32,000 nt of DNA from an uncultured Erysipelotrichaceae bacterium (lineage in GTDB: Bacteria > Bacillota_I > Bacilli_A > Erysipelotrichales > Erysipelotrichaceae), in the NCBI GenBank assembly GCA_964401865.1, contig CAYNZZ010000012.1, forward strand, positions 1,931 to 33,930, written 5' to 3'. Under the pieces are notes generated by a model, which was given only the letters and a program-made list of their open reading frames with translations, was not told where the DNA came from and did not search any database. Made by a program: the position numbers and the translations under genes. Below, piece by piece: positions 2,645-26,766 of this stretch; within the stretch, counting starts at the first letter, position 1, and every line of letters starts with the position of its first letter.

Positions 2645-2865
2645 AAAAATAAAAAGCGTCCCAAAGGACGCTTGCATGCGTGTTACCACCTTATTTCGCA
2701 GTTAAATAACTACCTCAAACCCTTAACGCGGATAACGAACAAACCTACTAAAATTCAATTTATTAACTCCAAGACTACTTTTCTTCTTCGATGCGTGTCT
2801 TTTTCACCTATCAAGACATCTCTTATGTCACTCTAAGAATACTTCCTTCTCTTCAAAGTCTATAA
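2645..2865 (-). promoter_or_regulatory. T-box riboswitch leader (tRNA-Val responsive) including its intrinsic terminator
   Basis: Minus strand reads AAUAAGGUGGUAACACG (T-box sequence, 2679-2695). It is followed by terminator hairpin AGCGUCC-UUUG-GGACGCU (2655-2672) and a U-run, then the valS RBS. Upstream are a GGUGAAA-type Stem I distal loop, an F-box-like CCGCGUUA, and a candidate specifier GUA (Val) at 2776-2778 in GAAAAGUAG. Confidence 0.85.
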
Positions 2866-3761: not shown

Positions 3762-6067
3762 CAACCTATGAACGCCTCTTTAATTACTTGGTCAATTCTT
3801 TCAACCGGAATGAATTTAATATCATTTTTAACTGTATCTGGAACGTCATCCAAATCTTTAATATTTCCTTTAGGAAAAACAATGGTGTCAATTCCTGAAC
3901 GATGAGCAGCTAAAGATTTTTCTTTTAAACCACCAATCGGTAGCACATTACCCCTTAAAGTAACTTCGCCGGTCATTGCTAAATCTGACCTTACTTTAGT
4001 CTTAGTTATAGCACTTACTAAAGCGGTTGTGAGCGTAACACCTGCGGATGGTCCATCCTTTGGAACAGCTCCTTCTGGAACATGAATATGAATATCATGT
4101 GTTTCAAAGAAATCATTTTCAATTTTATATTTGTCAGCGTTAGCCTTAACATAGTCAAGTGCAATTTTAGCAGATTCCTGCATTACATCTCCTAATTGAC
4201 CGGTGACAATCAAGTTACCCTTTCCTTTGAAATAATTAACTTCAACCGGAAGAATATCGCCACCAAACGACGTATAGGCAAGTCCAGTAACTACACCGAT
4301 CTGATCGTTTTTCTCTTTAGCACCATAATCATAAAACTCATGGCCTAACCATTCATTAATCTTCTTTTTTGAAACTTTAATGGTCTTCTTTTCATCTTTC
4401 AGAATGCTGAGAACCGATTTGCGACATAACGAACCGATTACTCTTTCTAGTTGTCTAACACCAGCTTCTCTTGTATAGTGTCTAATTAAGTATAAAATTA
4501 ATTCATTAGATAAATTAAATTGTGACGATTTTAAACCATTGATCTCTAATTGTTTAGGAATCAGGTGTTTAATAGCAATCTGTTCTTTTTCAATTTCAGT
4601 GTAAGAACTCAAATTAATGATTTCTAGACGGTCTTTTAAGGCAGATGGTATATTATCAATGTAATTAGCAGTAGCAATAAATAGAACATTCGATAAATCG
4701 TAAGGCTCTTCAATATAGTGGTCTGAGAAGGCAAAATTCTGTTCAGGATCCAACACTTCTAGCATTGCGCTTGATGGATCGCCTTTATAATCGGAAGCCA
4801 TTTTGTCTATCTCATCAATTAAGAAAACAGGATTTAGTACACCGGCTTTTTTCATTCCTTGAATGATTCTACCTGGCATTGAACCAATATATGTTCTTCT
4901 ATGGCCTCTAATTTCTGCTTCGTCTTTAACACCACCTAATGATATTTTAACGAATTTGCGATCTAGAGCACGAGCTACCGATCTAGCCAAAGAAGTTTTA
5001 CCAACTCCTGGAGGACCTACAAGACAAATAATTGGACTCTTTAGACTATTAGTCATCTGTTTAACAGCCAAATATTCCAAAATACGTTCCTTTACCTTTT
5101 CAAGACCATAGTGATCTTCATCAAGTATTCTGGAAGCTAATTTTAAATCATCGTTATCATCAGACTTCTGATACCAAGGAATTTGTAGCAGCCATTCCAA
5201 GTAAGACCTAATCACTACAGCTTCACTAGAACTACTTGGCATCATATCATAGCGTTTAAATTCATCTAAAGCCTTTTCTTTAATATTTTCAGGATATGGT
5301 TCGCTCATTACTTTTTCTTTAAGGTCATCCATATCTCCAGATGAAGGCGCTTCATTTAATTCTTCTTTAATCGCCTTAATTTTTTCTCTTAAATAGTATT
5401 CTTTTTGACTATCTTCAATACGTTCTTTAATAACTGAGTTAATATGCTCTTCGATTTTTGCTACTTCTTTTTCTTTATATATCAATTCAAGAACTAACAT
5501 TAACCTTTCGCTTAAACTATTTTCTTCAAGAATTCTTTGCTTATCATATATATTCAAGACCATATATTGTCCAAATGAATAAACTAATTCATCAGATGAA
5601 AGCCCTGATTTTAATAAATCAATAATCTTAAATAAATTAGGATTGTTATTTAAGCTTTTCATCATCGAGATTTCATTGACGACTCTTTTTGTCAAAATCT
5701 CGACATTTGTCGCATCAACTTCAACATCTTCAATCTCTTCAACTTCAACAAAGTTTACACCATCTTTTTCTATATGGCGAATAATTTTAGCAACCTTTTT
5801 GCCTTCAAAAACAACACGATAGTGGTTTTCTTCTTTACGACGGAAATTCTTAATTATGCTCAAAGTACCATATTCAAAAATATCTTCGGCATCAGGTTTT
5901 TCTACACTAATATCTTTTTGCGAAACAATGAAAATCATTGAATCATCACGGCTAGCTTGTTCAACTGCATCAATACTAGGTTTACGTCCAACCTCGACAC
6001 TTAAATCTTGATTGGGAAAAATAACAGCTCCCCTAGTACATAATAATGGAACGATTTTTGTGTTCAT
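3761..6067 (-). CDS. lon: ATP-dependent Lon protease (LonA)
   Basis: N-terminal LON substrate domain, AAA+ Walker A GPPGVGKTS, and protease domain with PKDGPSAG catalytic Ser and a GGLKEK Lys. The ATG at 6067 is 8 nt after GGAGG, so the ORF-track TTG at 6073 is rejected. Confidence 0.96.
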   Translation of the reverse strand: MNTKIVPLLCTRGAVIFPNQDLSVEVGRKPSIDAVEQASRDDSMIFIVSQKDISVEKPDAEDIFEYGTLSIIKNFRRKEENHYRVVFEGKKVAKIIRHIEKDGVNFVEVEEIEDVEVDATNVEILTKRVVNEISMMKSLNNNPNLFKIIDLLKSGLSSDELVYSFGQYMVLNIYDKQRILEENSLSERLMLVLELIYKEKEVAKIEEHINSVIKERIEDSQKEYYLREKIKAIKEELNEAPSSGDMDDLKEKVMSEPYPENIKEKALDEFKRYDMMPSSSSEAVVIRSYLEWLLQIPWYQKSDDNDDLKLASRILDEDHYGLEKVKERILEYLAVKQMTNSLKSPIICLVGPPGVGKTSLARSVARALDRKFVKISLGGVKDEAEIRGHRRTYIGSMPGRIIQGMKKAGVLNPVFLIDEIDKMASDYKGDPSSAMLEVLDPEQNFAFSDHYIEEPYDLSNVLFIATANYIDNIPSALKDRLEIINLSSYTEIEKEQIAIKHLIPKQLEINGLKSSQFNLSNELILYLIRHYTREAGVRQLERVIGSLCRKSVLSILKDEKKTIKVSKKKINEWLGHEFYDYGAKEKNDQIGVVTGLAYTSFGGDILPVEVNYFKGKGNLIVTGQLGDVMQESAKIALDYVKANADKYKIENDFFETHDIHIHVPEGAVPKDGPSAGVTLTTALVSAITKTKVRSDLAMTGEVTLRGNVLPIGGLKEKSLAAHRSGIDTIVFPKGNIKDLDDVPDTVKNDIKFIPVERIDQVIKEAFIG

Positions 6068-15099: not shown

Positions 15100-15121
15100 A
15101 TGTTATTCCGAGTAAGCAAAT

Positions 15122-15155
15122 TGAAAAGGTAGTGATAAGTCAAATTATCACTACC
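15122..15155 (-). terminator. rho-independent terminator after nth
   Basis: Perfect 11-bp stem GGTAGTGATAA (15128-15138) with TTATCACTACC (15145-15155), immediately after the nth TAG stop. It is followed on the minus strand by UUUUCAAUUU. Confidence 0.75.
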
Positions 15156-15156
15156 C

Positions 15157-15789
15157 CTACTTTTCATATTTTTTTCGTTTACAAATATCTATTAGCGGAC
15201 AATTATCGCAATTAGGATTTTTAGCTTTGCAGAAATATCGTCCAAAGAAAATCATCTGATGATGCGTTTTATTCCATAACTTCTTATCAATCCTCTTGCA
15301 CAATTTTTCTTCAATTTTCAAAACATCATCATCATATTTAGCCAATCCAAGTCTTTTACTGACTCTTGCCACATGAGTATCTACAGCTAATGTCGGCACA
15401 TCAAAGGCAACCGATAAAACAACATTCGCCGTTTTACGACCCACACCATCTAGGGTCATTAAATCTTTTCTGTTATTTGGTACCGTGCCATTATATTTAT
15501 TTACCAAATCTTTAGATATCGCAATAATATTTTTTGCCTTATTATGATATAAACCAATTGAATGAATAATCTTTTCAACTTCCCTAATATCTGCATCAGC
15601 TAATTTATAACAATCAGGATATCGAAGAAACAATGCTGGCGTTACTGTATTGACTCTTTGATCAGTCGTTTGAGCACTTAAAGAAACAGCTATCAACAAT
15701 TCAAAAGCATCCTTATGAATAAGTTCACAATGTGCATCGGGATATAAGTCTTCAAAAGTATCTAAAATTCTAATTACTTTATTATTCAT
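15157..15789 (-). CDS. nth: endonuclease III
   Basis: HhH-GPD motif (LMTLDGVGRKTANVVL) with catalytic Lys/Asp context, and a C-terminal 4Fe-4S loop C-x6-C-x2-C-x5-C (CKAKNPNCDNCPLIDIC). Confidence 0.93.
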   Translation of the reverse strand: MNNKVIRILDTFEDLYPDAHCELIHKDAFELLIAVSLSAQTTDQRVNTVTPALFLRYPDCYKLADADIREVEKIIHSIGLYHNKAKNIIAISKDLVNKYNGTVPNNRKDLMTLDGVGRKTANVVLSVAFDVPTLAVDTHVARVSKRLGLAKYDDDVLKIEEKLCKRIDKKLWNKTHHQMIFFGRYFCKAKNPNCDNCPLIDICKRKKYEK

Positions 15790-25732: not shown

Positions 25733-25942
25733 TTATTGTCCCATAGATTTCATAATAGAACGAATTTGTGCTTCAGATGGTTTTCTTCCCATTTGAAGGA
25801 ACATTGCTCTAACCATCTTTTCAGTAATAGGTGGATTTTCTTTTATTTGTTTTTCAAAATAACGTTTTGTTAAAAAGAAACCGATTAAACCACCGATTAA
25901 ACCGCCAATGACCAAATACATAATTGATGTCCAAACATTCAT
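25733..25942 (-). CDS. yneF: UPF0154 family small membrane protein (YneF-like)
   Basis: 69 aa with a single N-terminal TM helix rich in G/I/L, then the block KENPPITEKMVRAMFLQMGRKPSEAQI typical of the family. RBS AAGAGGTG. Confidence 0.8.
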   Translation of the reverse strand: MNVWTSIMYLVIGGLIGGLIGFFLTKRYFEKQIKENPPITEKMVRAMFLQMGRKPSEAQIRSIMKSMGQ

Positions 25943-25979
25943 TTTTTTACACCTCTTTCAATATTTACTGTTAGTTTAT

Positions 25980-26008
25980 ATTCTAACTAAAAAATACTAC
26001 ATTGTAAA
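25980..26008 (-). promoter_or_regulatory. putative sigmaA promoter for yneF
   Basis: Minus strand TTTACA (26008-26003), 17-nt spacer, TAGAAT (25985-25980). Confidence 0.5.
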
Positions 26009-26150
26009 CCTGATGGGGGGTAATTCCCTGACCCTCCCAGGTGGTTCATCTATACATCCCTTTAGGATCCTCACTTATAGCGAGTCTTCAACACCAGCAT
26101 GTAACACGAATAGAACCATAATAAACATGTAGGAATTAAGAACCATCAGG
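26009..26150 (-). ncRNA. unclassified structured RNA candidate (~142 nt)
   Basis: GC-enriched island in an AT-rich 266-nt gap. Fully nested helices: P1 26143-26150/26009-26016 (8 bp), P2 26131-26138/26021-26028, P3 26125-26129/26098-26102, P4 26092-26097/26037-26043, P5 26080-26084/26070-26074, P6 26065-26068/26056-26059. G-U pairs in P5 and P2 would be A-C mismatches on the plus strand, which favours the minus strand. A TATAAT sits at 26163-26158, 7 nt upstream of P1. I could not match any Rfam family by eye. Confidence 0.55.
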
Positions 26151-26208
26151 CAATATGATTATAATATATAATTTTTTAAATATATAGTCTTGACAAGATA
26201 TTTTAATA

Positions 26209-26766
26209 TTACTTTGCGAAATCCTTCATAATTCCAACATAGATTTCTTTTAATTCTTTAATGGAATCTTCACTTGGATTTCCAGCTACCCAAGAGTTTA
26301 CCACTGAGATATGGCCTTCTTGAGGCACGCCATTAACAATTGAAAACACATGAGGAGTATAAATAGTCTTTTCACCTAATTCATTTGTCCTCAATATCGG
26401 TTCAAGAATATCAACCACTTTTTCAAACGTTTCGCCTTTCAAAGGATATCTTTCACTTGTGCAATCTAAATAATAAACAGTTACGTCGAGTTCTTCAGCA
26501 ACTTCATTTACATATTGAGCTGCTTCTTGGCAAACATCGCAACCTTTATAACCCATAAATATAATTGCAGAATTACCATCTTCAACAACTTTCATCATTT
26601 CATCAGGACTAATTCCTCTAAAATTGTGTTCAGTTGAGCTAAGACCTTTATATCCGCTCATATCCACCGGATAAGATTCAATCTCCTTTACATTTAACTC
26701 CACATTTGACTTTGCACACCCAAACAAAGTGAATAAAACAATTAAATAAAACAGTAATTTTTTCAT
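26209..26766 (-). CDS. thioredoxin-fold lipoprotein with CxxC motif
   Basis: Signal peptide plus lipobox LFGC, then GYKGCDVCQEA (CxxC) in a thioredoxin-like context. The ATG overlaps the pfkB stop (ATGA). GGAGG RBS. Confidence 0.7.
   Translation of the reverse strand: MKKLLFYLIVLFTLFGCAKSNVELNVKEIESYPVDMSGYKGLSSTEHNFRGISPDEMMKVVEDGNSAIIFMGYKGCDVCQEAAQYVNEVAEELDVTVYYLDCTSERYPLKGETFEKVVDILEPILRTNELGEKTIYTPHVFSIVNGVPQEGHISVVNSWVAGNPSEDSIKELKEIYVGIMKDFAK

Follow-up and report, generated by a model that had tools for sequence, protein, structure and literature searches.

An RNA gene upstream of yneF in an uncultured Erysipelotrichaceae bacterium is very probably a compact 6S RNA (ssrS type)

6S RNA is best described in E. 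coli and, as 6S-1, in B. subtilis, where the central bubble of the molecule acts as a promoter mimic and release is driven by the synthesis of a product RNA (pRNA) (PMC8414754, PMC8876501). Hallmarks of the pRNA are an adenine next to its start and GG at positions 4/5, and a descriptive length range of 160-200 nucleotides (nt) has been given for 6S RNAs (PMC8414754). In the Firmicutes type, the 3' strand of the central bubble contains a hairpin (PMC8876501, PMC8414754). Engineered truncated 6S-1 RNAs of 78 and 82 nt, consisting of the bubble and short arms, still pass through the 6S cycle in vitro with an approximately 10-fold lower affinity (PMC8876501). The 6S RNAs of lactic acid bacteria measure 183-195 nt, and their usual neighbours are rarA and uspA. 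Here we analyse an RNA element at positions 26009-26150, minus strand, of a stretch of 32,000 nt (the window) from an uncultured Erysipelotrichaceae bacterium (assembly GCA_964401865.1, contig CAYNZZ010000012.1, positions 1,931 to 33,930). The element lies in a spacer of 266 nt (25943-26208) between a lipoprotein gene and yneF, and we consider it very probable that it is an Erysipelotrichaceae 6S RNA gene of the ssrS type, compact at about 145-150 nt. A literature search on 6S RNA in Erysipelotrichia returned nothing specific.

The limits of the gene were taken from a covariance model of the clade, and all nucleotides of the RNA are numbered from position 26150 (nt 1) on the minus strand.
26007-26152, minus strand: RNA gene, limits from clade covariance model R1 (cmsearch, 118.4 bits)

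Related loci were collected in two ways. The contigs of the eight homologues of the lipoprotein, which were the only ones among 5.8 billion proteins in a word-index search, gave loci L001-L008, in which the spacer has a conserved core and the order is pfkB, lipoprotein, spacer, yneF. A further 20 loci (L009-L028) were found by scanning one genome per species with a pattern made from three conserved blocks. Fifteen of these 20 are titled Erysipelotrichaceae and the others Candidatus Colivicinus, Solobacterium or uncultured Firmicutes; where a source is stated it is mostly the rumen or gut of cattle, goat or horse. Altogether 26 related loci each carry one copy of the RNA in the same place, in the order pfkB, lipoprotein, RNA and usually yneF, which together with the window gives 27 copies and 26 distinct sequences. 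Model R1 has 149 positions and 40 pairs, and a cmsearch over 194 kilobases (kb) of these loci returned exactly one match per locus. The pattern demanded TTCCTACA, ATCCTNAANG and GATGNNNCACC, and the invariance of these blocks in L009-L028 is partly by construction. The helices discussed below fall in positions that the pattern left free, but the invariance of helix P2 stems partly from the required TTCC. Independently of the pattern, AATTCCTACA was already invariant in the seven loci reached through the protein.

The Rfam model of 6S RNA (RF00013, 6S/SsrS) has a gathering score of 46.4 bits. In a search of 361 nt of the window (25900-26260) in E-value mode, the full model (1-187) was aligned to 26003-26155 of the minus strand with 28.9 bits (E = 3.1e-4). 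Scores in the orthologues were 33.2 bits (L001), 38.5 bits (L004), 34.4 bits (L007) and 36.8 bits (L008), as well as 17.8 bits in L005, in which the element is cut at the contig end, and 46.5 bits in L026, which is above the gathering score. RF00013 was the sole Rfam family matched, always at the same element and on the same strand. The preliminary description of this DNA, made from its letters without database searches, had reported no match to 6S RNA and had named a confident Rfam match as evidence against its own proposal of a new element; what was found is a single family whose model is aligned from end to end.

A consensus structure was derived independently of the Rfam model. The test set for structure was a structure-blind MAFFT alignment of 24 distinct homologues, and both fold models considered here were counted on this same alignment. 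The RNAalifold consensus of the 24 sequences is a rod, consisting of a closing arm, a central bubble with 13-14 nt on each side, and an apical arm with a terminal hairpin. The segments paired in this rod are those paired in the Rfam 6S alignment. Sequence blocks in common with the 6S consensus are GGUGU.G.A, A.CCUAAA and CCACCU. The parts of the rod in the window are the following.
26143-26150, minus strand: P1, 5' strand, nt 1-8, CCUGAUGG; 7 of 8 pairs changed on both sides, 95.8% of cells paired
26009-26016, minus strand: P1, 3' strand, nt 135-142, CCAUCAGG; G26151-U26008 can add a ninth pair
Between P1 and P2, minus strand: internal loop (4x4), UUCU/CCCC
26131-26138, minus strand: P2, 5' strand, nt 13-20, UAAUUCCU; 85.9% of cells paired in the MAFFT-based alignment A3 and 93.1% in alignment A6, mostly invariant
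26021-26028, minus strand: P2, 3' strand, nt 123-130, GGGAAUUA
26118-26130, minus strand: central bubble, 5' strand, nt 21-33, ACAUGUUUAUUAU; without pairs in the RNAalifold consensus and aligned to the bubble of RF00013
26027-26041, minus strand: hairpin in the 3' strand of the bubble, nt 110-124, CCUGG-GAGGG-UCAGG
26113-26117, minus strand: inner stem, 5' strand, nt 34-38, GGUUC; 100% of cells paired, one pair changed from C-G to U-A (17:7)
26043-26047, minus strand: inner stem, 3' strand, nt 104-108, GAACC
26096-26103, minus strand: helix of the apical arm, 5' strand, nt 48-55, UACAUGCU; 7 of 8 pairs changed on both sides, 94.3% of cells paired
26053-26060, minus strand: helix of the apical arm, 3' strand, nt 91-98, GGGAUGUA
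26070-26084, minus strand: terminal hairpin (P5 in the preliminary description), nt 67-81, CUCGC-UAUAA-GUGAG; 100% of cells paired, 3 of 5 pairs changed on both sides

In the bubble, nt 21-33 face nt 109-122, and a GA/UC pair step stands between the apical helix of 8 base pairs (bp) and the terminal hairpin. For the rod as a whole 94.2% of cells are paired, 19 pairs are changed on both sides, and the covariation score is 0.340 compared with 0.164 for shuffles, none of 500 shuffles being as high. Pairing drops to 35-56% when the partners are slid. An alignment fitted to the model has 94.6% of its cells paired, and 21 of its 40 pairs are changed on both sides; these figures are to be read with the leaning of that alignment towards the structure.

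The preliminary description had proposed another fold, in which P1 and P2 close a junction with a hairpin P3 (CAUGU/ACAUG), a helix P4 and two small hairpins, and had regarded it as a new class of multi-branched structured RNA. All helices of that proposal are present in the window on the minus strand, among them the UUCU/CCCC loop, CAUGU/ACAUG, CUCGC-UAUAA-GUGAG and AUCC-UAAAG-GGAU, as are the runs GGGAGGG (nt 113-119) and CCCCCC (nt 131-136); the 3' strand of P2 had been given as 'GGGGAAUUA', which does not occur, the real letters being those listed above. The minimum-energy fold of the window sequence is itself branched, and the 6S score of the window lies below the Rfam gathering score, both of which fit a multi-branched RNA outside the known families. 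On the alignment P1, P2 and the terminal hairpin are supported, whereas P3 and the AUCC/GGAU hairpin are paired in 54% and 60% of cells, respectively; one pair of the latter is formed in only 1 of the 24 sequences. The multi-branched model reaches 83.1% of cells paired and a covariation score of 0.164, with 13 pairs changed on both sides; the rod has 94.2% and 0.340. Of the proposed helices, P3 and the AUCC/GGAU hairpin were therefore rejected, their nucleotides forming instead the apical helix nt 48-55/91-98 with 7 of 8 compensatory pairs. The pairing GGUG/CACC, which we took to be P4, for which no letters had been given, is invariant and hence uninformative, also as a possible alternative or tertiary contact, and it crosses the covarying inner stem. 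Together with the repeated matches to the 6S model, this makes a new multi-branched class highly improbable.

In the 3' bubble strand, the CCUNNN/NNNAGG hairpin has 88% of its cells paired, compared with 72% in shuffles, and all three of its variable pairs are changed on both sides; the alignment used here (A4) was anchored by hand on the hairpin. It takes, for example, the forms CCUGG/CCAGG, CCUUUU/AAAAGG, CCUGA/UCAGG, CCUC/GAGG and CCUGGGC/GCUCAGG and can be formed in nearly all sequences after CACC. Since its 3' arm uses the G residues that pair with CCU of P2, the hairpin and the two top pairs of P2 are mutually exclusive.

Taken alone, the folding signal of the single sequence is modest. 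The minus strand folds at -47 kcal/mol with z = -2.49, and 3 of 200 shuffles were as good, while the plus strand has z = -0.98, in agreement with the strand proposed earlier. A z-score of only -2.49 could also be expected from a chance fold in a spacer that has no function. The decisive evidence comes from the relatives, in which the element is kept with widespread compensatory changes, as a check by homologues and covariation had been meant to reveal, and in which conservation of the RNA exceeds that of the flanking lipoprotein, the identity of which drops to 31-46% in most loci. We regard the probability of a functionless chance fold as practically negligible. The RNA is a genuine, conserved gene on the minus strand, present in a single copy per locus and with its own -10 element.

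The promoter region contains the following features.
26158-26163, minus strand: -10 hexamer TATAAT, 7 nt upstream of P1
26186-26194, minus strand: GTCAAGACT box, about -43 to -35, with 22 nt between its end and the -10 hexamer
25980-26008, minus strand: yneF promoter TTTACA-17-TAGAAT, abutting the 3' end of the RNA and outside the RNA

Both the TATAAT 7 nt before P1 (26163-26158) and a separate yneF promoter directly after P1 (26008-25980) had been pointed out in advance, and both were found where they had been placed. The -10 element reads TATAAT in 26 of the 27 loci and GATAAT in L023; it was not imposed by the scan pattern, and the seven loci collected via the lipoprotein show no variation in it. 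This agrees with the earlier view that the minus strand here bears a structured small RNA as an independent unit; its transcription is predicted, with G26151 as the predicted 5' end. In loci bearing the GTCAAGACT box no canonical -35 hexamer was found at the usual spacing. The box itself is exact in 24 of the 27 loci, 21-23 nt upstream of the -10 hexamer (spacing determined by eye), and often begins immediately behind the lipoprotein stop codon. In L009 and L022 it is missing, and an ordinary TTGAAC-16-TATAAT promoter is present instead, with its -35 hexamer within the final codons of the lipoprotein gene. One exact copy of GTCAAGACT occurs in the window, matches with one mismatch are at chance level, and an extended 11-mer of the box occurs at most once per locus. 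The box may be an activator site. To our knowledge, from comparison by eye, it resembles no regulator site such as cre, the Spo0A box or that of WalR.

A promoter of the form T[TA][TG]ACA-17/18-TAnnAT (TTTACA or TAGACA) is found between the RNA and yneF in 18 loci. This bears on the possibility that the element is a cis-acting leader or riboswitch-like element controlling yneF, for which the position speaks: in all loci with both, yneF follows the RNA at a distance of 28-86 nt. No promoter was found between the RNA and yneF in L007 (2195-2230) and L027 (2858-2890), where the ribosome-binding site of yneF is within about 30 nt, and in these two species co-transcription of the 6S RNA with yneF is likely. 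A leader is nevertheless very improbable, given the intervening promoter in 18 loci, the lack of a terminator or a hairpin sequestering the ribosome-binding site between the two, the lack of any matched riboswitch family, and the fact that the RNA is kept in L009 and L022 in front of an unrelated membrane protein of 603 amino acids (aa). No intrinsic terminator was detected between the RNA and yneF, and the only terminator-like site comes after yneF; the 3' end of the RNA is therefore probably formed by processing, or there is some read-through. In L012 a run of N (about 3988-4020) lies just downstream of the RNA and covers the region of the yneF promoter.

Several observations weigh against the assignment to 6S RNA. 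The score of the window, 28.9 bits, is well below the gathering score, and the one orthologue above it (L026) clears the threshold by only 0.1 bit. The 6S match was absent when the whole window of 32 kb was searched against Rfam in E-value mode with stricter filters, and a linear scaling of the E-value gives approximately 0.03 for the window, which would not be significant genome-wide. In L014 (3800-4200), which represents the largest subclade, RF00013 gave no match at E <= 10, and only matches at chance level were seen, e.g. RsaE with E = 0.47. With a length of 146-154 nt (the ends of P1 plus 2 nt on each side) the RNA is shorter than the 160-200 nt of 6S RNA and the 183-195 nt of the lactic acid bacteria, and the minimum-energy fold of the window sequence is not a clean rod. 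Furthermore, the invariance of the three scanned blocks was partly imposed by the pattern in 20 loci.

Model R1 scores L014 at 165 bits, which together with the absent RF00013 match means that the Rfam 6S model misses part of the clade entirely. At gathering scores, a search of the whole window against Rfam found only a T-box and no 6S RNA, and the loss of the 6S match in whole-window searches is the reason why the element looks unannotated. The closing arm has about half the length found in the model: on the 5' side, positions 13-21 and 36-42 are deleted, as are their partners (about 18 positions per strand). It is mainly because of this short arm that the model sees the clade only marginally. 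As truncated 6S-1 RNAs work in vitro, a short closing arm is compatible with function, and the short length is a difference from 6S RNA but does not exclude the element from it.

The sub-threshold scores, the orthologue without a match, the shortened closing arm and the GTCAAGACT box in place of a -35 hexamer would also be expected of a rod-shaped look-alike of 6S RNA, distant or convergent, with a different partner or role. Against such a look-alike, the element is aligned to the model from end to end with congruent helices and shares sequence blocks in the apical arm and the 3' bubble strand; in addition, one orthologue exceeds the curated threshold, and the bubble hairpin and the hallmarks of the pRNA template are those of Firmicutes 6S RNA. 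We judge it improbable, though a shade less so than a yneF leader, and retain the assignment to 6S RNA.

The most conserved part of the molecule is nt 14-23, in which the template hallmark 5'-UUCCUAC|A is present in the window.
26128-26137, minus strand: proposed pRNA template, nt 14-23, AAUUCCUACA; invariant in the seven loci independent of the pattern

From this sequence we infer that the pRNA would start at C22 (26129), with A23 as the adjoining adenine, and that it would read 5'-GUAGGAAUUAAGAACC, with GG at positions 4/5. Polymerase binding and pRNA synthesis are likewise proposed by analogy with the described 6S RNAs. The rod with its open bubble would mimic an open promoter and, in competition with promoters, occupy the active site of the housekeeping sigma-A RNA polymerase holoenzyme, by which sigma-A transcription would be lowered under nutrient scarcity. 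On recovery the polymerase would copy the 5' strand of the bubble and the 5' strand of P2 into a short pRNA beginning 5'-GUAGGAAUU at C22. This synthesis would unwind P2, the 'downstream duplex', and free GGGAAUUA, which could then re-pair locally, either in an extended 3'-bubble hairpin or in an alternative hairpin seen in relatives, whereupon the RNA would leave the polymerase.

For the refolding step, predictions were made with the 5' strand of P2 blocked in RNAfold, and a hairpin of at least 7 bp (UGAGAAA/UUUCUCA) appeared in 9 of 24 sequences. In 11 of 20 distinct sequences the duplex of the freed strand surpasses composition-matched shuffles, which it does not do in the window or its subclade. 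The pairings UGAGAAA/UUUCUCA and UUGGAA/UUCCAA (the latter in L009 and L022) are significant in sister clades and compensatory between clades. An alternative pairing of the G-run with the C-run, suggested earlier as a way of unzipping P1 and P2, does exist in the window with -10.8 kcal/mol; against a shuffled mean of -8.9 kcal/mol it is not distinguished (p = 0.13). For the window sequence the modelled refolding step is thus best described as plausible.

The neighbouring genes in the window are listed below.
26209-26766, minus strand: lipoprotein gene, 185 aa, CxxC motif
25733-25942, minus strand: yneF/UPF0154, downstream of the spacer

A GC-enriched island had been described in the gap between these genes, and the counts bear this out: the G+C content of 26009-26150 is 44% compared with 32.5% for the window, and it rises to 48% in 26000-26099. 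The lipoprotein (185 aa) is without a Pfam match. In each of the 26 related loci its gene immediately precedes the RNA, with 31-68% protein identity (tblastn); the protein seems to be specific to this lineage and to remain linked to the 6S gene. According to tblastn, yneF follows the RNA in all loci that reach far enough, except L009 and L022. These two loci are Candidatus Colivicinus equi and a relative, and in both the RNA is followed by the 603-aa protein (5576-7387 in L009), a multi-pass membrane protein unrelated to yneF.

An open reading frame of 74 aa on the plus strand (25908-26132) was considered as a gene and rejected, as its homologues differ by insertions and deletions of 1-6 nt, often not multiples of three, and by paired substitutions. 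Elsewhere in the window, a T-box leader (RF00230) was found at 2661-2865, minus strand, with 108.1 bits (E = 3e-23), the sole match in the window above a gathering score. A weak match to mir-71, an animal microRNA family, at 15115-15172, minus strand (28.5 bits, E = 0.051), is almost certainly due to chance.

With the assignment to 6S RNA, an apparent orphan structured RNA is struck from the list, being a member of a known family and not a new kind of RNA, and existing knowledge of the action of 6S RNA is unchanged. The 6S genes of this uncultured gut and rumen lineage fall under the Rfam gathering score and are consequently missed by routine annotation; the 27 copies, the structure supported by covariation and model R1 could be used for annotating 6S RNA in Erysipelotrichaceae. 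The naturally short closing arm bears on the minimum helix that 6S RNA needs, and the conserved promoter box is a small lead on 6S regulation. A more far-reaching and rather unlikely reading is that the Erysipelotrichaceae hold a natural 'mini-6S' lineage, defined by a half-length closing arm, a pRNA start about 22 nt from the 5' end and a promoter with the GTCAAGACT box but without a -35 hexamer. If this were true, an unknown activator tying 6S levels to a signal could bind at GTCAAGACT. Less likely still is a version in which drift has given the RNA a different partner in place of the sigma-A holoenzyme.

Compared with the 6S RNAs covered by RF00013, the RNA described here has the end-to-end alignment, the rod layout and the blocks GGUGU, CCUAAA and CCACCU in common, and it differs by its score in the window (28.9 versus 46.4 bits), its shortened closing arm and its length of 146-154 nt. 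With E. coli 6S RNA it would share GG at positions 4/5 of the predicted pRNA, and possibly a refolding in which the 3' strands of P2 and of the bubble pair with each other, similar to the extended 3'-bubble hairpin by which release is driven in gamma-proteobacteria; it differs in that the alternative pairing of the window is no better than shuffles (p = 0.13). The pRNA of E. coli 6S RNA starts at U44, while the predicted start here is only about 22 nt from the 5' end.

The likeness to B. subtilis 6S-1 and to the 6S RNAs of lactic acid bacteria lies in a large 5' bulge opposite a small 3'-bubble hairpin, which can be formed already in the free RNA. A helix that collapses the central bubble by pairing its 5' strand with the 3' strand of P2 was not found in this RNA. 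As in Firmicutes 6S RNAs, an adenine adjoins the presumed pRNA start and the predicted pRNA contains a GG dinucleotide; unlike in these, the predicted position is 4/5, as in E. coli, Aquifex and Rhodobacter, and not 5/6. The neighbours here are the lipoprotein gene and yneF, and not rarA or uspA as in lactic acid bacteria. Finally, whereas the truncated 6S-1 RNAs are laboratory constructs, the RNA of the Erysipelotrichaceae is a natural and conserved form, in which only the closing arm is shortened.

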